Assembly (NCBI GenBank): GCA_050633245.1 | Contig: JBOEGD010000016.1 | Location: forward strand, 46 to 64,045 | Direction: 5' to 3' | DNA from: Calditrichia bacterium | GTDB taxonomy: Bacteria > Calditrichota > Calditrichia > RBG-13-44-9 > J075 | DNA length: 64,000 bases | Part shown: piece after piece, positions 31,340-49,240 of the stretch | Layout: the number at the start of each line of letters is the position of its first letter | Numbering within the stretch: the first letter of the stretch is position 1 | Position numbers and translations under genes: made by a program | Notes under the pieces: model-generated | Seen by the model: the letters and a program-made list of their open reading frames with translations, nothing else | What the model was told of the DNA's origin: nothing | Database searches by the model: none

Positions 31340-31603
31340 ATGCCGATTAAAAGCTATCTCGCCCATCCTGTCCCGCATCAAAAAAAAGAGCTTCAGCAAG
31401 TTCTTTCTGCAATGCCGGAATGTGACTGTTTACATTCCGAAACGCATGACGTTTTGGTGCTGGTTACCAGCACAGAAACAAAGGATGCAGAACTTATTCT
31501 GGAGCAGAGGCTAAAAGAGATTGACGCTCTTCAATGCCTCGTTTTAGTTGCGGGGTACGAAGATCCCCCTCAAAAAATGGTGGTAACAAATGATGAATCG
31601 TAG
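31340..31603 (+). CDS. napD: periplasmic nitrate reductase chaperone NapD
   Basis: 87 aa immediately upstream of napA and overlapping it by 14 nt; size and position typical of NapD. Confidence 0.65.
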   Translation: MPIKSYLAHPVPHQKKELQQVLSAMPECDCLHSETHDVLVLVTSTETKDAELILEQRLKEIDALQCLVLVAGYEDPPQKMVVTNDES

Positions 31604-33911: not shown

Positions 33912-34594
33912 CGGACGACTTAAACTCAAAATACCGATTCATATTTATTGGCCTATGTATACTCCTGATGGCATCATCCGTTTTGATTATTGGTAAGAGC
34001 CTACGTGAAAACGCACGAGAACCGGATATCTCTTTGCAATCGAAGGGTGATCGCTCGGCAATTGCAATTGAGGCAGACGTGTTTCGAAGTGCCGGTAAAA
34101 TGTCGGAGAACTTTTTTTCTCAGGCTGCGAAAGGCTCCTCTCGAAAACTGGTTGATTTTTATTCTCTTAGGGCGTATCCGGGTGCTCCTCCCTCTATTCC
34201 ACATCCGGTAGCGAAGAACAATACCATTGGACACAACGTTTGCCTGCAATGCCACGAAAACGGAGGATATGTACCCAAATTTGAAGCATTTGCACCTGTG
34301 ACACCCCACCCGGAATTTGTTAACTGTTTACAATGTCATTCCGTTAACACGACCAACAGCACGTTTGTAAATTCTGATTGGAGAGTTCCCGCTCCGCCCC
34401 GAATAAATCAGGAGGCACTCTCCGGAAGTCCTCCACCCATTCCACACGCGCTCCATCTAAGAGGTAATTGCCTCGCGTGTCATTCGGGTCCGGGCGCCGT
34501 TGAGGAACTAAGATTTACCCATGCAGAGCGTACCAATTGTCTACAATGCCATGCCTTGAGTTCTGGCATATCGCCCTGGCAACGTGAACAATAA
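33875..34594 (+). CDS. tetraheme c-type cytochrome, NapB-like (apparent tandem diheme duplication)
   Basis: 239 aa with a signal anchor and four CxxCH motifs (CLQCHEN, CLQCHSV, CLACHSG, CLQCHAL), each preceded by NapB-like P..P.HP segments. Confidence 0.65.
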   Translation: MRGKSGKSNRGLTDDLNSKYRFIFIGLCILLMASSVLIIGKSLRENAREPDISLQSKGDRSAIAIEADVFRSAGKMSENFFSQAAKGSSRKLVDFYSLRAYPGAPPSIPHPVAKNNTIGHNVCLQCHENGGYVPKFEAFAPVTPHPEFVNCLQCHSVNTTNSTFVNSDWRVPAPPRINQEALSGSPPPIPHALHLRGNCLACHSGPGAVEELRFTHAERTNCLQCHALSSGISPWQREQ

Positions 34595-34652
34595 TTCTAC
34601 AGTGACAAACATTTATGTGTCATTTAGCAACCATTCGAAAGTAGAGAAACGA

Positions 34653-35297
34653 ATGAAAATTTTGCCTAAAATTCCATCGGTGAATTACTTATTTCTTACC
34701 ATTGGTTTCGGTTTTCTCCTAATGGCCTGCAGTTCTGACCATGAAGATAAGACACATCACCAGAGCTTCGCCGAACAGTTATCGGAGAAACATGATCGGA
34801 CCTTAAAGGTGGACATAAATCGTGTAACAGATTTCGATCTTGAAAATTTTATTCCGGTAGACGTTTTATCAACCAACCCCAAATTCTACGTCTCCCCACA
34901 GCTTGCTACAATTTCATCATTTCCCTGCAATGAATGTCATGATCGTCCTTTGAGACAGCTTACTAAGCTTGTCGATCCGGAGATTCAAAAGGCCCATTGG
35001 CAGATTCAGCTAAAGCACGCTTCTACAGATGCGATGGACTGTCAAACTTGTCACAACTCGGAGGACATGAATACATTGGTTAGCTTAACCGGCAAGAAGA
35101 TATCCCTTAACCACAGTTATCAACAGTGCGCTCAGTGTCATTCCGGTCAAGCGACAGACTGGATTGGTGGTGCACATGGCAAACGTGTTGAAGGATGGAT
35201 TCCTCCTCGAATTATCAAAAACTGTGTCCAGTGTCATGATCCACACCAACCGGGTTGGGAAAAAAGATGGCCGACTCAAACACAACAAGTGAGATAA
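34653..35297 (+). CDS. tetraheme c-type cytochrome lipoprotein
   Basis: Start placed at MKILPKIPSVNYLFLTIGFGFLLMACSS (lipoprotein-type signal; ORF track begins at 34584). Four CxxCH motifs: CNECHD, CQTCHN, CAQCHS, CVQCHD. Confidence 0.6.
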   Translation: MKILPKIPSVNYLFLTIGFGFLLMACSSDHEDKTHHQSFAEQLSEKHDRTLKVDINRVTDFDLENFIPVDVLSTNPKFYVSPQLATISSFPCNECHDRPLRQLTKLVDPEIQKAHWQIQLKHASTDAMDCQTCHNSEDMNTLVSLTGKKISLNHSYQQCAQCHSGQATDWIGGAHGKRVEGWIPPRIIKNCVQCHDPHQPGWEKRWPTQTQQVR

Positions 35298-35596
35298 CGA
35301 TACAATGAAAACTCTTCCACAGCAAAACCAGTGTTCTCAAGGATGTTGCTCTAATAAGACAGACGCCAATTCTCCCCCCCAAAGTTTCGCAAGTGGCATC
35401 GCGAATAAGACACTTGCCGGGCTTAAAAAGAACACTCAGGAACTGCTTGCCGAAAGCCAGTTGAAACTAACGCCGACGCCCCGATTTGAATCCTCCGTAA
35501 ATTCAGCGTCTGGTTTAAATGACGTTTTGCTATGGCATCTGATGAAGGATGATGTTTCAAACTCAAAAGCTCAGGCAAAATCAAAGCACATTCAAA

Positions 35597-36525
35597 TGGA
35601 GCAAGCCATTCAACGCCCAATGTCACGTCGTTCAGCAGTGAAAGGTCTGGCCGCAGGCTTAATGGCCGGTCTCGGACTTGTGCAAAGTAGCTGTAGTCCG
35701 TTTGAGGGAGATTCCGGCAAAGCGAGCAAACTAAAATGGAATGAATACTTCAAAGGGAATTTCCGCTTAATGACCGCGACGGAAAAACGGGAAACAATAG
35801 ACCGCCTTCAGCAACTGTATGCACTAAACACCGGGGAACACATTCAGATTAGCGCCGCAAGTGCGCCGAAGAATGTGCTATTTGGCTATGCGTTTAATAT
35901 TGGTAAGTGCCAGGGTTACATGGATTGTATAAAGGCATGTATCAATGAGAATAATCAGGATCGCAAATCCGATATGCGCTACATTCGTATTCATGAGCAC
36001 AAAAAAGGGCATTTTAACTTTGAACATGCCAAAGACGATTTTTTTCATGAGGTTCCCCTGGAAGGGCACTTCTATATAGGAACTCAATGTTTTCACTGTG
36101 AGAATCCGCCATGTGTTGATGTCTGCCCTGTCCAGGCTACCTGGAAGGAGGAAGACGGGATTGTGGTTGTCGATTACGACTGGTGCATCGGCTGTCGATA
36201 TTGTCAAGCTGCCTGCCCTTATGATGCTCGTCGGTTCAATTGGAATGATCCCACTGTTCCGGAAGAGGAAGTGAATCGCAAGCAACATTACCTCGGGAAC
36301 AGGCTCCGGAAGAAAGGCGTCATGGAAAAGTGCACTTTCTGCATTCAGCGCACGCGCGCAGGCAAAAACCCGGCCTGTGTTGAAGCATGCCCAACCGGAG
36401 CGCGTGTGTTTGGCAACTTACTAGATCCCGACAGCGAAATCCGATGGATTATTGAGAACAAAAAAGTGTTTCGTTTAAAAGAGGAATTAGGGACTGAGCC
36501 TAAATTTTGGTATTACATGGACTAA
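35597..36525 (+). CDS. 4Fe-4S ferredoxin-type iron-sulfur subunit (NrfC/PsrB/ActB-like) with Tat signal
   Basis: The ORF track ATG at 35305 adds ~100 aa before the Tat motif, so the start is placed at 35597 or 35621 (MSRRSAVKGLAAGLMAGLGL). Four Cys clusters: CQGYMDCIKAC, CFHCENPPCVDVCP, CIGCRYCQAACP, CTFCIQR...CVEACP. Confidence 0.75.
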
Positions 36526-36540
36526 GATGACTGGATAAAA

Positions 36541-37764
36541 ATGGTAAATCTTTCTGTTCTAAAAAGTTTTTTTAAAGATGCCTTGGCCTCCACAATACGC
36601 GGCAGTTTGCAATATCATTTGTGGATGGCTTTTCTGACCTTCATAATGCTCTGTGGAGCCTACGCCTATTCGGTGCAACTTGAAGAAGGTCTTGCTGCAA
36701 CAGGAATGAGCGATAGCGTTAGCTGGGGCATTTACATCTCTAATTTCACCTTCCTGGTAGGCGTTGCTGCTGCTGCTGTAATGCTGGTTCTTCCGACATA
36801 TATCCTAAAAGATATAGACTTTTCACGAGCCGTTCTTATCGGCGAGGGGCTCGCTGTAGCGGCATTGGTCATGTGTCTTGCCTTCGTAACCGTAGATCTT
36901 GGAGGCCCGGCAAGAGCCTGGCACCTGCTGCCAATAGTTGGATTATTCAACTGGCCGAGTTCTATGTTGGCGTGGGATGTTATTGTATTAAACGGTTATC
37001 TCTTCATCAATATCACCATTCCTTTTTACATCCTGTTTCACCACTATCAGAATAAAAAGCCCAGCAAAAATGTCTACCTTCCTGGAATAATAATTTCCGT
37101 ATTTTGGGCTGTTGCAATCCATTTGGTAACAGCGTTTCTATACGCAGGGCTGGCCTCACGCCCCTTCTGGAACTCTTCATTATTGGGGCCGCGCTTCCTG
37201 GCCTCGGCATTTGCAGCAGGCCCGGCATTAATTGTAATCGTACTCAGTCTTATCCATCACAAAACAGACTACAATATTCAACAAAATACGATTAATAAGA
37301 TTGCCCTGATCGCCACCGTCTCGGCTCAAATAAATCTCATTATGTTGGGATCTGAAATATTTAAGGAATTTTACGCACCGACTCATCACAGTCAGAGTGC
37401 GGTTTATCTGTTTTTCGGCTTAGGTGGTAACACCTCTCTGGTGCCCTGGATTTGGACATCAATTGGGATGAACCTACTTGCAACGGGGATGCTGACATTT
37501 CACTTCCTTCACCGAAAACCCATGTTCTTGTACAGTGCATGCACCATGCTATTCGTCGCCATATGGATCGAAAAAGGAATGGGTCTTATTATTCCCGGCT
37601 TTATTCCCGGCCCATGGGGTAAGATTGTTGAATACAGCCCAAGCTGGGTGGAAATAACAGTAACTGCCGGGATTTGGGCCATGGGTATTTTTCTGTTTAC
37701 AATGCTCGTAAAAGTTGCTATCTCCATTGAAACAGGACGCATGCGCTACCAGGCCGGGAGCTAA
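36541..37764 (+). CDS. NrfD/PsrC-family polytopic membrane quinol-interacting subunit
   Basis: 407 aa with ~10 TM helices, immediately downstream of the NrfC-like FeS protein. Confidence 0.75.
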   Translation: MVNLSVLKSFFKDALASTIRGSLQYHLWMAFLTFIMLCGAYAYSVQLEEGLAATGMSDSVSWGIYISNFTFLVGVAAAAVMLVLPTYILKDIDFSRAVLIGEGLAVAALVMCLAFVTVDLGGPARAWHLLPIVGLFNWPSSMLAWDVIVLNGYLFINITIPFYILFHHYQNKKPSKNVYLPGIIISVFWAVAIHLVTAFLYAGLASRPFWNSSLLGPRFLASAFAAGPALIVIVLSLIHHKTDYNIQQNTINKIALIATVSAQINLIMLGSEIFKEFYAPTHHSQSAVYLFFGLGGNTSLVPWIWTSIGMNLLATGMLTFHFLHRKPMFLYSACTMLFVAIWIEKGMGLIIPGFIPGPWGKIVEYSPSWVEITVTAGIWAMGIFLFTMLVKVAISIETGRMRYQAGS

Positions 37765-37963: not shown

Positions 37964-38827
37964 CTATTCTTTCTCATATAGCAGCCCATAACTCAAATCA
38001 TACGCTTCTTTTTGAAATCGCTGAGCAAAAGTTGCCTGCTCATGCACAGGAAGACTCGCCAAGTCACTATATTTCAAAACAGCGCCAACCCATCCCTTCG
38101 TATGCCAGTGTCCTGACGGGAGTTCGCCAAGCTCCGGCAGCGGCTTTGGATAAGGCCAGGGTGTAACATAAAAATAAGGTTCAGAATAACCTTCATCTCC
38201 CGGCGACAGACCAACACCTATGGACTTAGCTAATTCAGGATCAGGATTGCCCTCCACCTTTATTAACGTTGCGATATCAAAGTGATGCGGCCAGGTGCGA
38301 ACCGGCGAAGCCTTGTCTTCCAGATAAAATTGATTTTGCAACATTGCAGCAGAGTTGCTCCAACAGGCAGTCAAGGCTGCGCGTGCATCGGTAGTTGCTC
38401 GTTCAGAGGAAAAAATTCCGCCATCTTTCAATATATGATCCGGCATCTCATACGGCATCTCTAACCTGGCCTGCTCGGCATTCACCCCTTTAGAGCGGAG
38501 CGCCTCCTGGAACTCCTGTAATACCTCTTCCATGCTCTTCCCATCGAGGGCAATCTCAATAAGCTCTCCACGACGCTCTTCAACAAGCAGCGAAAATGAG
38601 CTTGGAGAAAGTCCGGCTCTTATTCGTTCGGCAGCAGATAATTCACGTGTCCAGAAGCGCTGTTCATCCACATGCCAGTGCAGACTGGTATGGCTATCAT
38701 CCTTCCTGGGTGGAAGCAGATATCTTCCAAAAGACGCACAATATTGTGCTGCGAAGTGTAGCTGTATTCTTGCCTCAATTATATCTGCAGATGCAACCTG
38801 CTTTATGGGGTGCCAATCCATTTTCAT
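37964..38827 (-). CDS. hypothetical protein
   Basis: 287 aa soluble protein with no recognisable motif, divergent from the Hsp70-like pair. Confidence 0.45.
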   Translation of the reverse strand: MKMDWHPIKQVASADIIEARIQLHFAAQYCASFGRYLLPPRKDDSHTSLHWHVDEQRFWTRELSAAERIRAGLSPSSFSLLVEERRGELIEIALDGKSMEEVLQEFQEALRSKGVNAEQARLEMPYEMPDHILKDGGIFSSERATTDARAALTACWSNSAAMLQNQFYLEDKASPVRTWPHHFDIATLIKVEGNPDPELAKSIGVGLSPGDEGYSEPYFYVTPWPYPKPLPELGELPSGHWHTKGWVGAVLKYSDLASLPVHEQATFAQRFQKEAYDLSYGLLYEKE

Positions 38828-39066
38828 ACTCCGATCTATAAAAACGTTTTAACTTGCGATAGTCAATTATTCACAAAAAATAGTATCAACGTGAGGTGAT
38901 GTATACCGAGAATACTCTTAGAACATACTCTATAATACGACGTATTTAATGTATTCGCATCAAGAAAGTGTTGCTATTGCGAACAAAAGCAAAACGAGCA
39001 TATTCGTTGCTTGCGTAACCTTTTATCGAGTATTAAGTTACGAGCGCAATATTAGTAAAGGAGAAT

Positions 39067-40869
39067 TTGTTGAGCAGCAGTCCATATATAGTCGGCATCG
39101 ATCTCGGCACAACGCACTGCGTTTTGGCCTACAGTAAGATTGACGAATCGTCCGATACCCCCTCAAAAATTGAATTAATGCGCATTCCGCAGGTTGTCAG
39201 CCCCGGTGAAATTAAAGAGTTGGCGCTTCTACCCTCTTTCTTACTGCTCCCCGGCCCGCATGATGTGCCGGAAGGTGGCCTGGCGCTACCTTGGGATGCT
39301 GCAAAAGACTATGCGGTTGGTGAATATGCGCGCAGTCGTGGAAATGAAATCCCAAACAGACTAGTGGCCTCTGCAAAGTCCTGGCTTTGCCATAGTGGTG
39401 TAGATCGCAGGGATGCTTTATTGCCCTGGAACAGCGGTGACGATGCACGACGCGTCTCACCGATTGAGGCGACGCAACGCTACCTCGAACACATTCGCGA
39501 CGCCTGGAACGCTCAAATGGCCGAAGATGACAAAAAGCATCGCCTGGAAGAACAGACGATCTATCTGACTGTTCCGGCTTCTTTTGATGCCGTAGCACGT
39601 GAATTGACTGCTGAAGCCGCCAGTGCAGCCGGGCTAAAGCGATTGACGCTATTGGAAGAACCACAGGCGGCCTTCTACGCCTGGCTGGAAGCAAAAGGCA
39701 ATAACTGGCGCAATGATGTCGAGCTTGGAGAATCTATTCTCGTTTGCGACGTAGGCGGCGGAACCAGCGACTTCAGTTTAATTGAGGTCAGCGGCAATGA
39801 AGGTTCACTGGAACTTGAACGTGCAGCGGTTGGCGAACATATTCTGCTTGGTGGCGACAATATGGATCTCGCGCTGGCCTATCTGATTCGCTCAAAGCTT
39901 GCACAAAACGGTACGAATATCGATGATTGGCAGTTCAAAGGCCTATGGCATAGCTGTCGGTCTGCTAAGGAGAAGCTGCTTAATAATCCGGAGATTGAAA
40001 CTGAGCCTTTGGTTATTCTTGGAAGAGGATCTTCCCTGATTGGCGGAACCATTCGCAGCGAGCTTACCCGCGAAGAAATGAATACGTCACTGGTCGATGG
40101 TTTTTTTCCCGCCGGAAATAATGATGATTTTCCACAGGAAGGCACGCGAATAGGAATGCGCGAAATGGGACTTCCCTATGCAGCAGACGCTGCAGTAACG
40201 CGCTACCTGGCGCACTTTCTAAGTAAGCATAGTGGGGAAACAACAGCATTTCCTTCCGCCGTGCTGTTTAATGGCGGCGTAATGAAGGCGGAGTCTTTCA
40301 GAACACGCGTTTTGGAAGCACTTTCTGCCTGGAAAGGCGATACCGTACGCGAGCTTAAAGCCAATGACCTGGATCTCGCCGTGGCAGTTGGTGCAACCTA
40401 CTATGGTCTTGCGCAATCCGGCAAGGGGATTCGTATTCGCGCCGGAGCTGCACGGGCCTACTATATCGGTGTCGAAAGCTCGATGCCCGCGGTTCCCGGC
40501 ATCCCTATTCCAATAAATGCTTTAAACGTCCTGCCATTCGGCACCGAAGAAGGAACAGAAACGGATATTCGTCAGCGCGAATTTGGCCTAATTGTCGGAC
40601 AGCCGGTAGTCTTCCATCTGCTCGCCTCCACGGCAAATGCAGATGACAAAGCCGGTGAAATTGTAGAAGACTGGGCCGGTAATATTCAGAATGTCAGCAC
40701 AATGGAATTAAATCTACCCGCAAGTGCCGACGAAGCTGGTGGAACGATTATCCCGGTATGGCTGCAGAGTAAACTGACGGAAGTCGGCACGCTTGAACTG
40801 TGGTGCGTTTCCACTAAAGATGATCGTCGCTGGAAACTTGAATTTTCAATACGAGATGAAACGGAGTAA
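39067..40869 (+). CDS. Hsp70-family protein (divergent DnaK paralog, no C-terminal lid)
   Basis: 600 aa. Hsp70 NBD signatures YIVGIDLGTTHCVLAY (phosphate 1) and ...ILVCDVGGGTSDFSLIEV... (connect 1). Then a beta-rich SBD-like segment (...TIIPVWLQSKLTEVGTLELWCVSTKDDRRWKLEFSI...). No alpha-helical lid or EEVD. Confidence 0.8.
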   Translation: MLSSSPYIVGIDLGTTHCVLAYSKIDESSDTPSKIELMRIPQVVSPGEIKELALLPSFLLLPGPHDVPEGGLALPWDAAKDYAVGEYARSRGNEIPNRLVASAKSWLCHSGVDRRDALLPWNSGDDARRVSPIEATQRYLEHIRDAWNAQMAEDDKKHRLEEQTIYLTVPASFDAVARELTAEAASAAGLKRLTLLEEPQAAFYAWLEAKGNNWRNDVELGESILVCDVGGGTSDFSLIEVSGNEGSLELERAAVGEHILLGGDNMDLALAYLIRSKLAQNGTNIDDWQFKGLWHSCRSAKEKLLNNPEIETEPLVILGRGSSLIGGTIRSELTREEMNTSLVDGFFPAGNNDDFPQEGTRIGMREMGLPYAADAAVTRYLAHFLSKHSGETTAFPSAVLFNGGVMKAESFRTRVLEALSAWKGDTVRELKANDLDLAVAVGATYYGLAQSGKGIRIRAGAARAYYIGVESSMPAVPGIPIPINALNVLPFGTEEGTETDIRQREFGLIVGQPVVFHLLASTANADDKAGEIVEDWAGNIQNVSTMELNLPASADEAGGTIIPVWLQSKLTEVGTLELWCVSTKDDRRWKLEFSIRDETE

Positions 40870-40877
40870 CTACCTGA

Positions 40878-43688
40878 ATGAGTTCGCTGTTCGACTTTCA
40901 AAATCGCGATTACAAATATATTATTGGTGTCGACCTCGGCACCACCAATTCCGCCGTAGCCTATGTAGACCTCAGCACCACGCGTCGTGCAATCAACTTT
41001 TTTCGAATTCCGCAACTTGTAGCCGCTGGTGAAATCGCAGAACGCGATATTCAACCCTCGTTTTTATATCTTCCGGGCGCATACGACTTACCTGAAGGCA
41101 GCACAGAACTTCCCTGGGACAAGAAGCGCGCTTATATGGTAGGTGAATTCGCTCGTGAACAGGGGGCAAACGTCCCGTCACGGTTGGTGGCCTCTGCAAA
41201 ATCCTGGCTATGCCATGCCGGTGTAAATCGCAAAGCACCAATCCTGCCTTGGGGGGCACCAGAGGAAATCTCCAAAGTGTCTCCATTGGAAGCCAGCAAA
41301 CGCTATCTGCAGCACATCAAGGAATCCTGGAACCACATGATGGCGAAAGGACGCGAAGATTTTTCCTTTGAAGAGCAGCTGGTAGTCTTAACCGTTCCGG
41401 CATCTTTTGATGAAGTTGCTCGCGAACTTACCGTAACCGCAGCGCAGGAAGCGGGTATTCCGCGAGTAGTGTTATTGGAAGAGCCACTCGCCGCTTTTTA
41501 TGCCTGGCTTTCGGCAAATGAATCGACCTGGCAAGAACAAATGCAGGTTGGGCAGCTCATCCTGGTTTGTGACGTTGGCGGTGGAACAACAGACCTTTCA
41601 CTGGTGGGCATTTTCGAAGGCGAAAAGGGCCTTCGTTTTAATCGCATGGCAGTTGGTGAACACTTGATGCTGGGTGGTGACAATATGGACCTGGCACTTG
41701 GGCGCTACCTCGAGCAAAAGCTGATGGGACAGCCCGGTCAGCTCGACAACCAGCGCTGGCATCAGCTTGTCTATCAATGTCGCAAGGCAAAAGAGACGCT
41801 GCTGGGTAATTCCAACCTGGCTGCTATGGATATTACCGTGATGGGAAGTGCGGGAAAGCTCATCGCCAATACCCTTAAAGGCAACTTTACTCAGGAAGAT
41901 ATTCAGAAAATTATTCTGGAAGGATTTTTTCCGAAAAGTGCGCTGGGCGAAAACCCCGACAATTCTCCACGTAGCGGCCTAACCGACCTCGGACTACCTT
42001 ATGTGCAAGATGCGGCTGTTACACGCCATCTGAGCGCTTTCTGGCGACGGTTTGAGAAGCTGATGCTCGATGAAACAGGCCGCAGCTCGGTATTCCCGGA
42101 TTTCGTACTATTCAATGGTGGTGTTCTCAGCCCGGAACTAATTCGCAATCACATTCGTGGCGTTGTTGGCGACTGGTTTGCACCGCTTGCCGGAGATGGT
42201 TGGACGCCCGCAGAATTAGATAATCCAAGACCAGACTTATCCGTCGCTATCGGCGCCGCATATTATGGAAAAGTTCGCGTCGGTGAAGGCGTGCGCGTCG
42301 GAAGCGGCAGTCCGCGAGCGTACTATTTAAATCTCGATGCAACAGCCGGTAAGGAGAAAGAACTTTGCCTGTTGCCACGCGGCGCCGAGGAAGGCGCAGA
42401 TATTCAGCTATCTTCACATAATTTTGAAGTGCTGACCAATCAACCGGTTGCATTTAACCTTGCGACATCAAGCACGCGGCTGGGTGACAAACTGGGCGAT
42501 GTGGTAAAGCTGGAAAGCGAGGAAAGAACCGCGCTGCCGGCAATTCAAACGGTACTTCGCTACGGCAAGAAGAATGAGGCACGCTCACTTCCCGTTGAAG
42601 TCGCAGTTCGACTTACCGAAATAGGCACGCTGGAGCTTTGGTGCCAGTCAAATGAAAGTGATCATCGCTGGCAGCTGCAGTTCGATGTACGCCTCGAAGC
42701 CGATGCGGCGTCTACTTCAAAAGGCGAGACTATCGACGCGGCATTGGTCGAAGAAGCCAATGCTGCAATAGAGAACACGTTTACCTCTTCGGAAAACGCG
42801 CTAAAACCAAGCAAGTTAATGAACGAACTTGAAGAAACACTCGATATGCAAAAAAATAAATGGCCAACCTCACTTATTCGTAAAATGGCAGACAGCCTCC
42901 TGGGAATGCCGGAAGCGCGAGATCTCTCCTTTGCGCATGAATCCCGCTGGCTTAACCTGCTGGGCTACAGTATGCGGCCTGGATTTGGCGATCCGGTCGA
43001 CGATTGGCGCATCAAGCAGTCCTGGAAGCTCTTTCTACAGGGTTTGCGCAATCCAAAGCAGCCGCAGGTAGTAAGTCAATGGTGGATTTTCTGGCGCCGC
43101 ATTGCCGGTGGACTCAGTGAAGGGCGGCAATCACAAATTTATCAGATGTATGCGCCCCTCGTTCATACCGGCAAAACAGCGAAGAAAAAGAGCGAGTTCG
43201 GTAAGCTCAACCCGCAGCAGGAACTGGAAGTTTGGATGCTGCTGGCAAACCTGGAACATTTACCCAAAAATGCCAAACAGGAATTGGGGCGCATCTTATT
43301 AAAACGTATTGCGAAGGGCAATGCCAAGCCGCAGGAATATTGGGCGCTGGGCCGCTTTGGCGCACGCATCCCTTTTTATGGTCATATCGACAATGCCCTA
43401 TCCGGAGCGGAGGTAGCAAGCTGGTGCGAATCTCTAATGAAGTCCAATCCGCAACTTTCAAATAATACCGCGATGACGTTCGTACACCTGGCGCGTAAAA
43501 CAGGTGATCACACACGCGATCTCTCAGGCGAGGTGTTCGAGAAAGTTGAAAACTGGCTGGCACAATCAGACAAGCAGCGCTATGTTGAATTGCTCAATAA
43601 TCCTTCCGCTGCTCTCGAACAAGACGAAAGAAATCAGCAATTCGGAGAATCTCTTCCATCCGGTCTCATCCTTCAATCCAGCCAATAA
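40878..43688 (+). CDS. Hsp70-family protein (second divergent paralog) with ~330 aa unique C-terminal helical extension
   Basis: 936 aa, 8 bp after the first paralog. NBD motifs YIIGVDLGTTNSAVAY and ...ILVCDVGGGTTDLSLVGI.... SBD-beta-like segment (...RSLPVEVAVRLTEIGTLELWCQSNESDHRWQLQFDV...). A C-terminal extension (...WLNLLGYSMRPGFGDPVDDWRIKQSWKLFLQGL...) has no recognisable family. Confidence 0.8.
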   Translation: MSSLFDFQNRDYKYIIGVDLGTTNSAVAYVDLSTTRRAINFFRIPQLVAAGEIAERDIQPSFLYLPGAYDLPEGSTELPWDKKRAYMVGEFAREQGANVPSRLVASAKSWLCHAGVNRKAPILPWGAPEEISKVSPLEASKRYLQHIKESWNHMMAKGREDFSFEEQLVVLTVPASFDEVARELTVTAAQEAGIPRVVLLEEPLAAFYAWLSANESTWQEQMQVGQLILVCDVGGGTTDLSLVGIFEGEKGLRFNRMAVGEHLMLGGDNMDLALGRYLEQKLMGQPGQLDNQRWHQLVYQCRKAKETLLGNSNLAAMDITVMGSAGKLIANTLKGNFTQEDIQKIILEGFFPKSALGENPDNSPRSGLTDLGLPYVQDAAVTRHLSAFWRRFEKLMLDETGRSSVFPDFVLFNGGVLSPELIRNHIRGVVGDWFAPLAGDGWTPAELDNPRPDLSVAIGAAYYGKVRVGEGVRVGSGSPRAYYLNLDATAGKEKELCLLPRGAEEGADIQLSSHNFEVLTNQPVAFNLATSSTRLGDKLGDVVKLESEERTALPAIQTVLRYGKKNEARSLPVEVAVRLTEIGTLELWCQSNESDHRWQLQFDVRLEADAASTSKGETIDAALVEEANAAIENTFTSSENALKPSKLMNELEETLDMQKNKWPTSLIRKMADSLLGMPEARDLSFAHESRWLNLLGYSMRPGFGDPVDDWRIKQSWKLFLQGLRNPKQPQVVSQWWIFWRRIAGGLSEGRQSQIYQMYAPLVHTGKTAKKKSEFGKLNPQQELEVWMLLANLEHLPKNAKQELGRILLKRIAKGNAKPQEYWALGRFGARIPFYGHIDNALSGAEVASWCESLMKSNPQLSNNTAMTFVHLARKTGDHTRDLSGEVFEKVENWLAQSDKQRYVELLNNPSAALEQDERNQQFGESLPSGLILQSSQ

Positions 43689-43787
43689 TTTGCCTGTTAT
43701 CCTCAAAACCTCTATATTTTTCAAATCTAACCCACCAACCCATCAGGCTGAGTAATCTTCAGCCTCACTGCAACTTGTATTACAACA

Positions 43788-44222
43788 TTGAAGGAGAAGT
43801 CTATGAATTGGACGAAGATTCTAATCGTAACTGCTGCAGGTGGATTTGTTATGTGGCTCTACAGCTTTATTACGCATGGTATGATGCTTGGAAACACCTA
43901 TGCCGGAATGCCGGAAGTATTTGTGCCCGGTGATCAGGGAAATCCGATCAGCTTTTTAGTTGTTCAGGTTTTTGTGGTATTTGCCGGAGCCATGCTGTTT
44001 GCTAAAACGCGTGGTTCATGGGATGAAGGTGCAAAAGGTGGAGCCATGTTTGGTTTCTATTTGGGACTTGTTCCACTCTTTGCCTCGCTGATGAATCCCA
44101 TGATCTTTGCAGATTTCCCTTACTATCTCGGATGGTGCTGGGGAACGATTAGCTTGATTGGCTGGACTCTTGTCGGGGCTCTGGCAGGCGTTCTTTACAA
44201 GCGTACCGATGTAGTCGCTTAA
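43788..44222 (+). CDS. hypothetical 4-TM membrane protein
   Basis: 144 aa with four hydrophobic helices; 100 bp downstream of the Hsp70 pair. Confidence 0.4.
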   Translation: MKEKSMNWTKILIVTAAGGFVMWLYSFITHGMMLGNTYAGMPEVFVPGDQGNPISFLVVQVFVVFAGAMLFAKTRGSWDEGAKGGAMFGFYLGLVPLFASLMNPMIFADFPYYLGWCWGTISLIGWTLVGALAGVLYKRTDVVA

Positions 44223-44230
44223 TAAGACTC

Positions 44231-44279
44231 CCGGCGTCTGACTTTTGGGGGAGAACATTATGTTCATTTCAGACGCCGG
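44231..44279. terminator. stem-loop between convergent genes (possible bidirectional terminator)
   Basis: 11-bp inverted repeat CCGGCGTCTGA / TCAGACGCCGG separated by 27 nt. The loop contains a nested GAACA..TGTTC hairpin. No strong U-tract. Confidence 0.35.
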
Positions 44280-44342
44280 TCGCTGTTCACATTATCGGAA
44301 CAGCGACCGGATTGTTAAGTTATTTTAGTACACTCTCCCGTA

Positions 44343-45092
44343 TTATCTTCCAAAACCAAATCCAAATGTCATATCCAGCACCCACTGACTACCCTCTGCA
44401 TCAAAATCAAGTGCTACGCCGGTTAGGGTAATTGCGGTAAACGTAACCGTCTTCCTCTTGAACCCAAATGTAATGGAATAGTTGGACATAAACGTGGTCA
44501 TTTCCACTCCGAATGTTTCCGTATCCCCCTTAAATCCGTCTTCCACTTCATCGAGCCAATTAACATCACCAATACCGGCAACCAGAAACAACGTAGTTTC
44601 ATTACCGCTTTTAAACCACTGCCATACACGTGGGTTTATCTTAATAAGATATTCCTCAGTGCGATAGTCGAGGTCTACCTCTACCCGTTTACTATCAAGC
44701 TTATGTGTTCCCTTGGCCTTCATGTACTGAATCTGTGCAATATTGCTGAAACCGGCCCGACCACCCCACTGAAAAACAAGGCTGGATAGAATGTCCAGCT
44801 GATTATCGAAGATATCTTCTACGTCAGAAGACCTAAGGTGGCTAAATCCCATTCCCCCCAACGCATGGACATATACAAAGGGCGGCTTGTATCTGCGTTT
44901 TTTACGCTTAACAACCGGCACCTGTTGTTCTGGCACAGCGGTTTGTGACGAGTCACTTTTCGTTTCCCCTATTGAAGGCTTTTGCAAAGAGTCGCTTATA
45001 GAAGAGTCTGGCAATGCAACTGGTTCTTGTGCAACAGCGAGCAAGGTGAAAAGAAACATACCTAAAAGTAGATGTTGAATGAATGGCCTCAT
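44343..45092 (-). CDS. hypothetical outer-membrane beta-barrel protein
   Basis: Start placed at the signal peptide MRPFIQHLLLGMFLFTLLAVAQ (ORF track starts at 45194). The C-terminal half has alternating beta-strand pattern and ends ...DMTFGFGFGR. Confidence 0.45.
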   Translation of the reverse strand: MRPFIQHLLLGMFLFTLLAVAQEPVALPDSSISDSLQKPSIGETKSDSSQTAVPEQQVPVVKRKKRRYKPPFVYVHALGGMGFSHLRSSDVEDIFDNQLDILSSLVFQWGGRAGFSNIAQIQYMKAKGTHKLDSKRVEVDLDYRTEEYLIKINPRVWQWFKSGNETTLFLVAGIGDVNWLDEVEDGFKGDTETFGVEMTTFMSNYSITFGFKRKTVTFTAITLTGVALDFDAEGSQWVLDMTFGFGFGR

Positions 45093-45354
45093 ATGGCTCC
45101 CCTCTATTCCGGTAAGAGAATTGTAAGCTGGTTCCGTGGTCTTACCGATCTTCAAATTATGCGGTGTATGAATCGATAGTCTTACTATTGACAAGTTTCA
45201 TGCCAGCGGGAAAGGTGTGTCAGGACGTTGTTTTAAGCACGCATGTCCCGAATTTGCTACGCTTTTTCTGGAATCATGTAACAAATTTGATACATTCGTG
45301 GATTTGACTTCCGGAACGCTTTCGGTATATTTTAAAAATCAAACTAATCCACGG

Positions 45355-47877
45355 ATGCTACCAATGCGTTTAAAAGGCAATATGTATTCACATCACCTGG
45401 TCATACTATGGCTGACCATGTCGATTGCTCTGTCTGCATTTACAACCTGGATTATTTCACAGAAATCACAGCCATTCAATGTCAACGAGCTGGAGCACTT
45501 TGCCAGCAAGAAAAACAACAATCACTATTTCCACGATTTAGATCGCGACGGATACAGTGAGCGATTTCGCATATCAAATCGCCCCGAAAAGACTTCTCAT
45601 AATATTCTGGTGCGAGACTACGACTCACGCGTCATCGATCAGGCAAACTACCTGGAACCAATCACCAGAGAAGGACTGTATTTTGAAGACATTACGAGAG
45701 ATAACTTTGATGAAGTTTTTGCACTAACCTGGCAGGACGACTCGCTTTTTTTATACATCCACAACCTGCAAACGAAAAAGGCCATCCTGAACAGACAGCA
45801 TGTTGCAATGCCAATGGCAGATTCCGCAAAAGAACGCCAGGTCTATATCTTTTTTCCAATAATGCTTTCCGATGTCGATGGAAATGGCTCAGCCGAATTC
45901 GTTTTCGCTTTATTTGGTAATGACCGATCCACGCGATCGGTCTATGCCTGGGACTTCCATCAGGCAAAAATGATAAAGAGCTTTGCCACGCACGCTGCCT
46001 TTCAGCAGATAAGCCTAGTGGATATGAATGGAGATGGGGAGCAGGAAATCATTATCGCCTCCGGTGCCACCGGTAATTTTCATATCCCGGTTGACTATGG
46101 AGATCAGGAGGCCTGGCTCTTTGTGCTGACAAATAAGCTTGAATTACTTTTTCCGGCAAAGCGTTATATCGAATTCCCAGGACGCATTGCCGCCTCCCCG
46201 CTTTTCATTGGAGATAAAAGCCACATTCTGGTAAGTGAAGCTTATGCAGGCGTGCGTAACCGCGAGAACTTCTTTTACCTTCTGGATAAAAACGGAAACG
46301 TGATTCGTAAAAACCACTCTCCATTGCAATTGAGTCCATACATACAACCTCTGATAGATAATGCGCAAAATCCACCATCACTCTTTTCCAATACACGGGA
46401 CAAGACGTTGATAAAGTTTAATACTGATCTGAACATCGAAGCAAAATTTCGTCCAGCGGGCAAATACATCTTTCCCTTCCTGTTGCAGGATCTCGATAAT
46501 GATGGTCTCAAAGAGGTACTCGCATCAACCGGAGATGAGCTTTTAATCTTTGATAACAATCTGAAGCAGCTCACCAAATGGGATGGAAAAATTGAGCTGT
46601 TAAGCTGGTCTGTTCGCCATACCGGGCCCAATTCACCGGTTGAGTTGATGTTCCGCAGTCCGGATGAAAATTTACAATACCGCATTCAACTGGTAGCGAA
46701 TCCACTGTCCGCACCGGGAACTATTTTTCTTTTTTCGCTGTTGGCATTTGGCCTTTTATGCTGGCTGATCTATCGGGTTTATTTACACAGTTCAGTAAAG
46801 TATCGCGGCTACCGCAGCGCCTTCATGCAGCATGATGGAGCGGTCGGCATTTTTTCACCTGATTTTAAGATCATTCGTTTTAACGCGAACTTTCGCACCG
46901 TTTTTAAAATGCCTGCCGATTTTGCACGGTTTTCAAATCTGAGTAAATCAATGCGGCATCTTCCAGGTGTGGTCAATGCTCTGTTAGAGTGCGTTAAAAC
47001 CACACGAACACTAAGTTTGGAAGTAGCGCCTGACAATACTCAGAGTTTTCCAGGCGGAAAGTTGGTGGTGCGTCCATGGATCGCCTTTCGGCGATGGCCT
47101 TTACTCTATGCGCTGGAATTTCGCCCATCAGAATACTCAGGGAATGATGCACAAACCCAAATTTGGACCAGCTTTATCGCGGAACAAGGTCATACGGTAA
47201 AGAATAACATTGTAGCGCTTCGCAACTTCACCGCTGCCATATTAACGCGCTTGAATGAAAGTCCCGGAGACACGCCAAAAGAAGTATTTGAAGACCTGCA
47301 AAGCTTAAAGCGTAACATTGGTTTTACGATCTCAACGGCTCGGAAGCTGGTCGATTTTTCTCAATATCAACCGCCTGCATATCGCATGGCGGATATCAGC
47401 ATTCCGCTCAAAGAAGCAATCGAAGAATACCAGCGTCAGTTTGCGGCGGGCCCGATATTGGAATATCAAATTGCAGACAATGCCACTCATGCATATACCG
47501 ATGTACTGCATCTAAAGCAAGTTCTACGAGTCCTGTTGCAAAATAGCGCTCGGGAGGCCGGAGACAGCGGCCAGATACAACTTTCGGCACAGTACATCAG
47601 CAATCCTACAATGATTGCCGATTTGTGGGAAGTTGAGATTTGGGATAATGGTAATGGCATTGCACCGAAATCTTTGGAAAAAATATTTGACGCGAATTAC
47701 AGCACCGCCCCCGATGGTAACGGCATGGGTCTTGCTTATGTTAAGCTGATTGTAGAAAACAATCTCGGCAGCATTCGGGCAGAATCGAAGGTTGGTCATT
47801 TTACACGATTCATCGTCCGGCTTCCGGCAACACATGAGGCATTTATACGCTTGAAAGAGGCGGGCAATGAACACTAG
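45355..47877 (+). CDS. sensor histidine kinase with periplasmic FG-GAP/beta-propeller-like repeat domain
   Basis: Start placed at MLPMRLKGNMYSHHLVILWLTMSIALSAF (TM1). The periplasmic region has repeated DxDxDG loops (DLDRDGYSE, DVDGNGSAEFVF, DMNGDGEQEIIIA, DLDNDGLKEVLAS). A second TM helix follows, then the C-terminal HATPase_c (...EIWDNGNGIAPKSLEKIFD...GNGMGLAYVK...). Confidence 0.75.
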   Translation: MLPMRLKGNMYSHHLVILWLTMSIALSAFTTWIISQKSQPFNVNELEHFASKKNNNHYFHDLDRDGYSERFRISNRPEKTSHNILVRDYDSRVIDQANYLEPITREGLYFEDITRDNFDEVFALTWQDDSLFLYIHNLQTKKAILNRQHVAMPMADSAKERQVYIFFPIMLSDVDGNGSAEFVFALFGNDRSTRSVYAWDFHQAKMIKSFATHAAFQQISLVDMNGDGEQEIIIASGATGNFHIPVDYGDQEAWLFVLTNKLELLFPAKRYIEFPGRIAASPLFIGDKSHILVSEAYAGVRNRENFFYLLDKNGNVIRKNHSPLQLSPYIQPLIDNAQNPPSLFSNTRDKTLIKFNTDLNIEAKFRPAGKYIFPFLLQDLDNDGLKEVLASTGDELLIFDNNLKQLTKWDGKIELLSWSVRHTGPNSPVELMFRSPDENLQYRIQLVANPLSAPGTIFLFSLLAFGLLCWLIYRVYLHSSVKYRGYRSAFMQHDGAVGIFSPDFKIIRFNANFRTVFKMPADFARFSNLSKSMRHLPGVVNALLECVKTTRTLSLEVAPDNTQSFPGGKLVVRPWIAFRRWPLLYALEFRPSEYSGNDAQTQIWTSFIAEQGHTVKNNIVALRNFTAAILTRLNESPGDTPKEVFEDLQSLKRNIGFTISTARKLVDFSQYQPPAYRMADISIPLKEAIEEYQRQFAAGPILEYQIADNATHAYTDVLHLKQVLRVLLQNSAREAGDSGQIQLSAQYISNPTMIADLWEVEIWDNGNGIAPKSLEKIFDANYSTAPDGNGMGLAYVKLIVENNLGSIRAESKVGHFTRFIVRLPATHEAFIRLKEAGNEH

Positions 47878-49240
47878 CGTATTGATAATTGATGATAATC
47901 GCGTTTACCTGGAAAGCATTCAGGCCTTTCTAAAGGCAAGACGCGTTCAGGTAGACATCCTGCAAAATCCACTGCATCTGGAAGCAAAGCTGCACCGCAG
48001 CAGCTACCACTGCATTGTATTAGACCTCGTGATGCCGGGTATGGATGGCGAGAAGACGCTGGAGCTGGTTCAAAAGATCGCTCCGGAAATTCCAGTTGTT
48101 CTCAACTCCGGCGCCAGTAATATTGAAACCGCAGTACGCTGCATTAAAAAAGGTGCATTTCATTTCATCGAGAAAAGTGAATCTCCCGAAAGTTTACTAC
48201 AACTTATTCATCTGGCGCAGCGCCAATACCGCCGTACCTATGAAGAAATTGAGGCTTATCGGTTAATCGGCTCCTCAAAGTCGATGGAAAAACTACGTGG
48301 TGATATCAACAAAGTAGCAGACAGCAGCGCAACGGTTTTAATTCTGGGAGAAAGTGGCACCGGCAAGGAACATGTTGCTGGTCTGCTTCATTATCTTAGC
48401 AGCCGGGCCAACGAGCCATTTGTTACACTCAACTGCGCAGCGATTTCCGAGAATCTGATTGAGAGTGAGCTATTCGGACACGTGAAAGGTGCATTTACCG
48501 GTGCCATCCGCGATCAGGATGGAGCATTTATTGCGGCTCATGGCGGGACACTGTTTTTGGATGAGATCGGCGATTTGCCTCAAAGTGCTCAGACCAAGCT
48601 GCTACGCGTGTTAGGTAGCGGAGAGATAAAACGAGTCGGCGACGCTCAAACGCGTACCGTTGACGTGCGAATTGTTGCTGCTACCAATCAGGATCTTAGT
48701 GAGTTAATTCGAGCCGGTACATTTCGTGAAGAGCTTTTCTATCGCCTGAACCAGCTGGTATTACGCACTCCACCACTCCGTGATCATCCCGAAGACATCC
48801 CCGAACTTTCTGAACATTTTCTGCCGGTGGCGAATCGCAAGAACAATCGTTACGTGGCAGCCTTCGCTAAAGACGCAATGTATTTCATACTCAGATATCG
48901 TTGGCCCGGAAATGTAAGGCAGCTACAGAGCGTTATTCTTCGCGCGGTGGCATTTGCCGAGGGAAATGAGATAACGCAGCAGGATGTTTCTGATGCCTTG
49001 GAAGTTACGGAGAACTCACGTAGCAGCAGCCCAAATCAAGAACAAGCCAAGCCAATAGACGTTCAGCCAATGGAAGAAGCGGTTAATGAGTTTCAGCGTC
49101 AGTACGTTATCGCTGCCCTCTATGCCTGTGGCGGCCGCAAAGGTGAAACTGCCGAGAAACTGGGACTAAGTCGGCAGACATTCTATCGGTTGATGGAGAA
49201 GCTGGACCTTAGTAACACCGATTTTAAGCCGGGTAATTGA
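47867..49240 (+). CDS. sigma-54-dependent response regulator (NtrC family)
   Basis: 457 aa with receiver VLIIDDN...VLDLVMPGMDG, AAA+ sigma-54 interaction domain (GESGTGKEHVA, GAFTGA, ESELFGH) and a C-terminal Fis-type HTH. Overlaps the kinase gene by 11 nt. Confidence 0.9.
   Translation: MNTSVLIIDDNRVYLESIQAFLKARRVQVDILQNPLHLEAKLHRSSYHCIVLDLVMPGMDGEKTLELVQKIAPEIPVVLNSGASNIETAVRCIKKGAFHFIEKSESPESLLQLIHLAQRQYRRTYEEIEAYRLIGSSKSMEKLRGDINKVADSSATVLILGESGTGKEHVAGLLHYLSSRANEPFVTLNCAAISENLIESELFGHVKGAFTGAIRDQDGAFIAAHGGTLFLDEIGDLPQSAQTKLLRVLGSGEIKRVGDAQTRTVDVRIVAATNQDLSELIRAGTFREELFYRLNQLVLRTPPLRDHPEDIPELSEHFLPVANRKNNRYVAAFAKDAMYFILRYRWPGNVRQLQSVILRAVAFAEGNEITQQDVSDALEVTENSRSSSPNQEQAKPIDVQPMEEAVNEFQRQYVIAALYACGGRKGETAEKLGLSRQTFYRLMEKLDLSNTDFKPGN

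Follow-up and report, generated by a model that had tools for sequence, protein, structure and literature searches.

Our analysis of the window, by which we mean the whole 64-kb stretch of DNA (64,000 nt) taken from contig JBOEGD010000016.1 of a Calditrichia bacterium, centres on two tandem Hsp70-like genes (A and B) and shows that they belong to a module with relatives throughout the bacteria. In its canonical form this module consists of a DUF2760 gene, an Hsp70 paralog of ~600 amino acids (aa) (A) and a second Hsp70 of ~940 aa that ends in a DUF3731 domain (B), and it is both widespread and horizontally mobile. The window locus is a reduced variant, in which the A-B pair stands without a linked DUF2760 gene. 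It adds a member without DUF2760 to an Hsp70 module that is already catalogued and widespread, and it is no new kind of system.

An Hsp70 pair with a recurrent gene order in many phyla

Three genes on the same strand make up the locus, with an 8-nt gap between A and B and a small protein with four transmembrane segments (4-TM) encoded after B, much as a first-pass annotation made from the sequence had described it:

39067..40869, + strand, gene A, Hsp70 paralog without lid, 600 aa, nucleotide-binding domain (NBD) plus a domain resembling the beta subdomain of the substrate-binding domain (SBD-beta-like); open reading frame (ORF) and translation
40878..43688, + strand, gene B, Hsp70 paralog with a predicted C-terminal DUF3731 solenoid, 936 aa; ORF and translation
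43803..44222, + strand, gene C, small 4-TM protein of 139 aa (four hydrophobic segments); best start ATG at 43803, AAGGAG 6 nt upstream

Gene A starts with a TTG (39067 or 39070) behind a GGAG at 39060-39063, and the ATG of gene B follows 8 nt past the stop codon of gene A, with a GGAG placed within the last codons of A. The two products are 42% identical over ~605 aligned residues, a moderate identity as had been claimed at first pass. Both match the Pfam HSP70 model (PF00012) with partial coverage (A: E 5.9e-16; B: 64.4 bits against a cut-off of 20.6). B is 100% identical to an NCBI entry named 'MAG: Hsp70 family protein [Calditrichia bacterium]', where MAG stands for metagenome-assembled genome, and a word-sharing search returns more than 8,000 homologs of the same architecture.

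Loci of the family (numbered with the prefix L) came from four sources, namely a genome scan, a metagenome scan with DUF3731 motifs (L093-L172), look-ups of encoding contigs, and plasmids. The first genome scan was seeded on generic Hsp70 motifs, and ordinary dnaK made up most of its 80 loci; the informative ones were L005-L021 and L027. We call a locus assessable if it holds a full-length B gene together with at least 2.8 kb of upstream DNA. The 48 loci of this kind stem from at least ten phyla and show five arrangements:

DUF2760-A-B, 30 of 48 loci
DUF2760-B, 7 of 48 loci
B alone, 7 of 48 loci
A-B, 2 of 48 loci
A-B-C, 2 of 48 loci (the window and its 85%-identical relative L001)

An A-type gene lies directly upstream of B in 34 of the 48, across many phyla, and A orthologs that are 41-64% identical directly precede B-type genes in phyla that are distant from each other. 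The pairing of A with B, on which the first-pass annotation had staked its interpretation, is hence conserved in other genomes. Groups that carry the module include Desulfobacterota, Gamma-, Beta- and Alphaproteobacteria, Acidobacteriota, Planctomycetota, Verrucomicrobiota, Chlamydiota, Bdellovibrionota and Riflebacteria. The full triad is found in Desulfobacterota, Acidobacteriota, Planctomycetota, Verrucomicrobiota, Bdellovibrionota and Riflebacteria, and also in Vibrio, Chromatiaceae, Methylococcus, Comamonadaceae, Bradyrhizobium and Parachlamydiaceae. The genes of the module often overlap or closely abut one another (e.g. L177, L018). In Desulforhabdus amnigena, whose B protein is 56% identical, the order is DUF2760 (PF10816), an Hsp70 of 608 aa and an Hsp70 with DUF3731 of 974 aa.

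B-type proteins are present in many Vibrio species, where B behaves as a core chromosomal gene, and the DUF3731 domain was detected on replicons of Burkholderia and Caballeronia (a domain match only, gene order aside). Direct evidence of horizontal movement comes from Bradyrhizobium barranii, whose 110-kb conjugative plasmid pCC829_3 carries the full triad (L178, 2524-7933) between trb and tra genes, with a MarR regulator preceding it and a VapC toxin gene adjoining it.

Two paralogs that look catalytically competent and stand apart from known Hsp70s

In alignments to DnaK, both A and B of the window have equivalents of D8, T11, K70, E171, D194, G196-198, T199 and D201, and these positions are invariant among 40 A-type and 68 B-type sequences. 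Going by this set of residues, both paralogs look like competent ATPases rather than pseudo-ATPases.

The first-pass annotation had allowed that the two genes might be ordinary HscC or YegD orthologs, and had proposed to place them in a phylogeny against DnaK, HscA, HscC and YegD. In our neighbour-joining tree of 425 NBD columns, which includes these four E. coli proteins, A-type and B-type sequences form a single clade apart from the group of DnaK, HscA and HscC, with YegD as the outgroup. NBD identity to the E. coli paralogs is 23-30%, and NCBIfam scores of A and B are ~25-91 bits against cut-offs of 331-822. Judged by these scores and by their separate clade, A and B are non-canonical Hsp70 paralogs and not orthologs of HscC or YegD. 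The subtrees of A and B largely agree with each other, and B proteins that have no A partner fall inside the B clade, which fits an old duplication followed by co-inheritance and secondary loss.

Both paralogs also share a conserved insertion (G-x-G-[VI]-R-[VI]-x-x-G-x-x-R-A-Y-Y; residues 469-483 of B and the equivalents in A) that follows the NBD and comes before the segment aligned to the VLLL linker of DnaK. A Cys residue of this linker-aligned segment (C497 in B) is invariant in B-type sequences and present in 37 of 40 A-type ones. The insertion and the Cys residue together indicate that the element coupling the two domains has been remodelled relative to DnaK.

A predicted solenoid in the position of the lid

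An AlphaFold2 (AF2) model of B, built from 62 sequences (mean predicted local distance difference test score (pLDDT) 79.7; predicted template-modelling score (pTM) 0.71), assigns residues 1-470 to the NBD and 475-605 to an all-beta domain, after which come a short linker of low confidence and an all-alpha domain of 16 helices (621-925). On the DNA, the domains are placed as follows:

40878..42287, + strand, B NBD of actin fold, residues 1-470; DnaK alignment, Foldseek top matches DnaK and BiP, full Hsp70 catalytic set
42300..42692, + strand, B beta-sandwich, SBD-beta-like, residues 475-605; all-beta in the AF2 model, superposes on 7kru/7krv
42738..43673, + strand, B DUF3731 (PF12531), predicted all-alpha ARM/HEAT-like solenoid, residues 621-932; PF12531 match (E 2.5e-82) and domain model

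When the B model was compared with the PDB by Foldseek, DnaK and BiP came out on top and Sse1 (2qxl) was also among the matches. The best superposition is with a lid-truncated, domain-docked DnaK (7kru/7krv; template-modelling (TM) score 0.67, target-normalised; root-mean-square deviation 5.9 Å over ~625 columns), which indicates that the beta domain is SBD-beta-like. The product of gene A stops right after this domain ('...WKLEFSIRDETE*') and so has no lid at all, which agrees with its first-pass description as a protein with a beta-sandwich-like segment that lacks both the lid and an EEVD tail.

As for the C-terminal extension of B, its reported length (~330 aa) and helical nature held up, but the statement that it has no recognisable family was wrong: residues 685-932 match PF12531 (DUF3731, 'DNA-K related protein') with 276.9 bits against a cut-off of 25 (E 2.5e-82). 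Structure prediction, which had been suggested for this extension at first pass, returned an all-alpha solenoid, and the helical domain modelled alone again has 16 helices (pLDDT 84, pTM 0.84). Its Foldseek matches are weak and of a generic ARM/HEAT kind (e.g. Armc8, importin-alpha, importin-4; E of at least 0.14, TM scores 0.40-0.48), and a profile search found no sequence relative of DUF3731 among PDB sequences. An exhaustive HMMER scan of 1.84 billion representatives located DUF3731 in 1,383 clusters at 50% identity; the proteins are ~900-1000 aa long and the domain is in every case C-terminal (shorter matches are fragments). This exclusive placement identifies DUF3731 as a dedicated appendage of this Hsp70 clade in the position of the lid and, according to the models, the lid of B is replaced by an ARM/HEAT-like solenoid.

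DUF2760, the usual third component

A DUF2760 gene heads the module in 37 of the 48 assessable loci. The conserved C-terminal domain of its product (124 residues, Pfam E ~1e-50) has no relative among PDB sequences in a profile search. At the N-terminus, 29 of 46 DUF2760 proteins have between one and four predicted transmembrane helices, mostly two, and the remaining 17 are short and open with a conserved hydrophobic-basic segment ('RISxAFRSFFSILF'). The short proteins of L137, L166, L143, L138, L162, L014, L021, L008 and L011 share the N-terminal pattern M-x-R-I-S-x-A-F-R-S-F-F-S-I-L-F. N-termini of this AFRSFFSILF type could form an amphipathic membrane-binding helix; alternatively, they resemble a typical Hsp70-binding peptide.

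Transmembrane and amphipathic N-termini of DUF2760 point to a module that is membrane-associated in general. The membrane link that had been proposed for the pair at first pass may hence be kept in an indirect form, running through these N-termini and not through the 4-TM protein. In a MAG of Spartobacteria (L013, 5461-7782), DUF2760 is followed by an A-type Hsp70 and there is no DUF3731 protein within 6 kb. This indicates that DUF2760 can pair with either paralog alone.

Proposed mechanism and alternatives

Homologs of DnaJ, HscB, DjlC or GrpE were not found by tblastn in the 64-kb window or in 106 loci of the family, so that the first-pass remark on the lack of a J-domain or GrpE gene near the pair holds for the window at large. 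Nor did clustering of 735 neighbouring genes from 101 loci reveal further conserved neighbours. It yielded only a heterogeneous sigma54/PAS/response-regulator group (~11 of 101 loci, with position and strand varied) and lineage-specific ThiL- and GlpQ-like genes.

Conserved pairing without an accompanying J-domain protein or GrpE makes a dedicated multi-component Hsp70 machine a reasonable reading. On balance, we lean towards the idea that DUF2760, A and B form a dedicated ATP-driven remodeller which operates independently of J-proteins and GrpE on a specific, probably membrane-associated client, and which is not a general folding chaperone. A two-component chaperone or ATP-driven remodeller had already been envisaged at first pass; what changes is its conserved third part, which is DUF2760 encoded upstream and not the 4-TM protein encoded downstream. 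In such a machine, B would be the core engine, given that some loci have B by itself and others have it with nothing but DUF2760, and A would be a co-evolving partner which, by analogy with Hsp70-Hsp110 or Ssz1-type complexes, probably pairs with B in an NBD-to-NBD fashion. The solenoid may offer a protein-binding platform for the client or for partners, and DUF2760, anchored by its transmembrane or amphipathic N-terminus, may serve the machine as a tether or activator on the cytoplasmic side of the membrane and so stand in for a J-protein. A bolder and more tentative proposal sees the triad as a third, self-contained type of bacterial Hsp70 machine, which would work without J-domain protein or GrpE, pair two competent paralogs in the manner of Hsp70-Hsp110 and use membrane-anchored DUF2760 in place of the J-protein, to target and activate it for a specific membrane-proximal client, with DUF2760-less variants (the window locus among them) relying on another tether or on none. 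We treat this as a possibility, and not as the likely outcome.

Several points weigh against the remodeller. First, 14 of 48 loci have B but no A, and L013 has an A-type gene with DUF2760 but no B, cases from which it follows that the pair is not obligatory. Second, our tblastn screen for J-domain proteins and GrpE has little power to detect very divergent co-chaperones and covers linked genes only, and the NBD tree is a simple neighbour-joining tree without support values. Third, the membrane link rests on DUF2760, for which 13 tblastn queries gave nothing better than E 0.14 in the 64-kb window and which was not found in the 18.8-kb locus of the relative L001 either. Finally, we found no experiment on any member in the papers searched, where DUF3731, DUF2760 and their Pfam/InterPro accessions go unmentioned. 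All the alternatives that we considered are, to our minds, nevertheless less well supported than the remodeller.

Among them, the idea that A and/or B act as Hsp110-like co-chaperones of canonical DnaK (enhancers of nucleotide exchange or disaggregation) fares best, unlikely as we consider it to be. Such a role has been proposed in general for NBD-containing derivatives of DnaK (2026 review, PMC13580251), the succession of NBD, SBD-beta and enlarged helical C-terminus loosely parallels Hsp110 (with Sse1 (2qxl) matched by Foldseek), and there is no dedicated J-protein or nucleotide exchange factor (NEF) linked to the module. Against this, the module has a conserved partner of its own in DUF2760 and travels with it as a unit, also on a conjugative plasmid; both paralogs keep the full catalytic set together with SBD-beta; and the tail of B is modelled as an ARM/HEAT-like solenoid rather than as an extended SBD-alpha lid.

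A second alternative takes A, B and C as one three-gene unit, in which the Hsp70 pair would act on C or together with it, C being a lineage-specific substitute for membrane-anchored DUF2760. Gene C lies on the same strand, starts 114 nt after gene B and has a strong ribosome-binding site; the spacer between B and C has no terminator-like structure (fold z -0.09), and downstream of C there is a strong hairpin; the arrangement is retained in the 85%-identical relative; and the usual partner, DUF2760, is likewise membrane-associated and was not found in the window. The hairpin is placed as follows:

44276..44310, hairpin, 13-bp, GC-rich, with T-rich flanks, between the convergent gene C and minus-strand ORF 44343-45194; fold

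Folded as RNA it reaches -41.6 kcal/mol (z -4.2), and 0 of 200 shuffled sequences were as stable; it is probably a bidirectional intrinsic terminator and likely the end of the A-B(-C) transcript. Pattern scans for promoters and terminators stayed at background level, and Rfam gave no RNA element around the genes. The minus-strand ORF on the far side of the hairpin (44343-45194, 283 aa) has one N-terminal hydrophobic segment and no Pfam match, and its counterpart in L001 is shorter (240 aa).

What speaks against the three-gene unit is the distribution of gene C, which occurs with B in 2 of 48 loci, the window and L001, and these are close relatives with synteny of the whole region; none of the 46 other assessable B loci has a C-like gene. 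Homologs of C with 43-50% identity adjoin FG-GAP proteins, a large PAS/GAF regulator, SEC-C proteins and others, and there is no Hsp70 near any of them. In other loci that lack DUF2760, the genes downstream are unrelated (NnrU-like, FeMo-co/ArsP-like) or there are none. With homologs in such unrelated contexts and only two joint occurrences with B, C is not a conserved partner of the module; it is a lineage-specific local neighbour and not a module component, and a three-gene unit of A, B and C thus strikes us as distinctly improbable. The first-pass expectation that the downstream 4-TM gene might track with the Hsp70 pair was consequently not borne out and, of the 'compact operon' proposed along with it, co-transcription stays plausible (given the lack of a terminator-like fold between B and C), but the linkage is not conserved beyond the lineage.

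The C protein itself has no significant Pfam, NCBIfam or PADLOC match at standard thresholds. At a relaxed threshold it aligns end to end with DUF1761 (PF08570; 15 bits, E 0.03, cut-off 31), and one homolog (P0139, 46% identical) scores 32.9 bits with DUF1761, above the Pfam cut-off. A word-based search found 38 relatives of C. We rejected the idea that C is a disguised DUF2760, there being no similarity between them. A shared substitute membrane partner for loci without DUF2760 was rejected as well, the genes that follow in L006 and L111 being of unrelated families (NnrU-like and FeMo-co/ArsP).

Very doubtful, in our opinion, is a module for conflict or anti-phage defence, or a plasmid-borne stress module, with Hsp70-like ATPases as sensors or effectors. 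It would suit the patchy phyletic distribution, the position on a conjugative plasmid between tra and trb and beside a VapC toxin gene, and the weak matches to PADLOC model PDC-M61B (E 1e-5 to 1e-6). These matches, however, are partial and cover 53-113 residues of the shared NBD core (~90-110 for the window proteins); PADLOC gave no full-length PDC-M61 match and none for DUF2760 or C. Moreover, there is no effector domain, no defence or mobile-element neighbour recurs across 101 loci, the module behaves as core chromosomal in Vibrio, no module copies were found in phage genomes, and the window copy is set between respiratory and regulatory genes. Identity as a defence system was rejected on the weak, partial NBD matches and the lack of phage copies. 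Hardly credible, finally, is that A and B form actin-like filaments of the MreB/ParM type, as their weak Pfam/NCBIfam MreB_Mbl matches (E 1e-7 to 1e-9) might suggest, since HSP70 matches are stronger, both proteins have the catalytic residues specific to Hsp70 as well as an SBD-beta-like domain, and the best-matching structures are DnaK and BiP.

Genes around the pair

Upstream of the pair, a DUF5996 protein is encoded on the minus strand (37964-38827), divergent from gene A across an AT-rich spacer of 239 nt; this divergent arrangement is kept in the 85% relative L001 and is seen in no other locus of the Hsp70 module. Further upstream (31590-37764, + strand) lies a five-gene respiratory cluster, Psr/Nrf/ACIII-like in appearance with unusual extra cytochromes:

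molybdopterin oxidoreductase catalytic subunit, 773 aa; 4Fe-4S dicluster protein, 406 aa; NrfD-type membrane subunit, 407 aa
two multihaem c-type cytochromes, 239 and 237 aa, with NapB/c7/MtrC-like matches

Downstream, two overlapping genes at 45217-49240 (+ strand) encode an FG-GAP-repeat histidine kinase (886 aa) and a sigma54-dependent response regulator (457 aa). In Desulforhabdus (L003) a sigma54/PAS regulator lies directly downstream of B. A consensus sigma54 promoter (TGGCAC-N5-TTGC type) was not found on the plus strand between 37000 and 45300. At 49395-52043 (minus strand) a large DUF5916 protein (882 aa) with a CBM9 carbohydrate-binding domain is encoded, which is kept in L001.

Comparison with known systems

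Closest to the window pair are the PF12531 Hsp70s with their PF10816 partner. B has the same architecture and an A-type paralog likewise lies upstream; the window differs in that no DUF2760 gene was found and that a DUF1761-like gene lies downstream. NCBI names the family members 'Hsp70 family protein' and 'DUF2760 domain-containing protein'; examples come from Vibrio spp., Burkholderia, the Comamonadaceae plasmid CP099603 and Bradyrhizobium pCC829_3.

With the DnaK-DnaJ-GrpE system, the pair shares the catalytic residues of the NBD and an SBD-beta-like domain that is modelled as docked in the manner of ATP-state DnaK. NBD identity of A and B to DnaK, however, is 25-27%, DnaK-type NCBIfam models score ~58-64 bits against cut-offs of 648-822, the SBD-alpha lid and an EEVD-type tail are missing, there are NBD insertions and an extra segment ahead of the linker, and no dnaJ or grpE gene is linked. 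HscA, HscC and YegD are likewise specialised non-heat-shock derivatives of Hsp70 whose lids are shortened or missing. HscA models, however, give A and B 54-91 bits against cut-offs of 620-743 (78-91 against 620-709 for the main models, TIGR01991 and PRK05183), and the window has neither isc genes nor an HscB match, the neighbours being genes for molybdopterin oxidoreductase, cytochromes and DUF5996. E. coli HscC groups with DnaK and HscA and not with the A/B clade (NBD identity 23-25%), and there is no DjlC match in the window. The YegD model PRK11678 scores 25-27 bits against a cut-off of 331, and YegD is without any SBD, whereas A and B have an SBD-beta-like domain.

Hsp70-Hsp110 and Ssz1-Zuo1 (RAC) resemble the proposed A-B pair in that two proteins of the Hsp70 fold pair up and one of them has an atypical C-terminus. 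We take this as a mechanistic analogy only: there is no orthology, the bacterial A and B both retain complete catalytic sites, the tail of B is a predicted solenoid, and DUF2760 is found instead of a J-protein. StkA of Myxococcus xanthus, too, is a non-heat-shock Hsp70 homolog encoded in a small operon, as one protein of 540 aa whose gene precedes those for SCP2-like StkB and PhaE-like StkC (PMC4319316). A lead to the stk locus as a tandem Hsp70 pair was rejected, StkA being single, with no DUF3731, DUF2760 or tandem paralog.

In V. cholerae, VC1373 and VC1374 are annotated as 'DnaK-related protein' and form an operon with VC1375. From this annotation and from the membership of other Vibrio species, VC1375-VC1374-VC1373 is probably the same module; V. 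cholerae itself is absent among the 120 matches listed for a Vibrio B-type query, which are mostly from V. parahaemolyticus and other Vibrio. Should the operon be a member, the experimental facts that we found on the family come down to three: HapR is a direct activator of the VC1375 promoter and binds to it (PMC10328515), the VC1373-1375 operon is on a list of genes repressed in biofilm (PMC9201469), and a vc1639 mutant has less VC1374 mRNA (PMC5636140).

The DUF3731-type Hsp70s are a large group (~1,400 clusters at 50% identity), core in Vibrio, present in Burkholderia and carried on plasmids. YegD, 'Hsp70 homologs', 'additional Hsp70' and 'uncharacterized' do not occur in the text of Mayer's 2021 review. 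To our minds the family would repay study, as part of an acknowledged blind spot of chaperone biology. The window's own contribution is the reduced variant, together with the correction on the neighbouring 4-TM gene. If the module proves autonomous, it would mean that driving and targeting an Hsp70 engine is possible without J-domains. Set against the known systems, the comparison gives an anatomy that can be tested: a module of three genes with membrane-anchored DUF2760, two Hsp70 paralogs with intact catalytic residues, a predicted solenoid in place of the lid and no linked J-protein or NEF.

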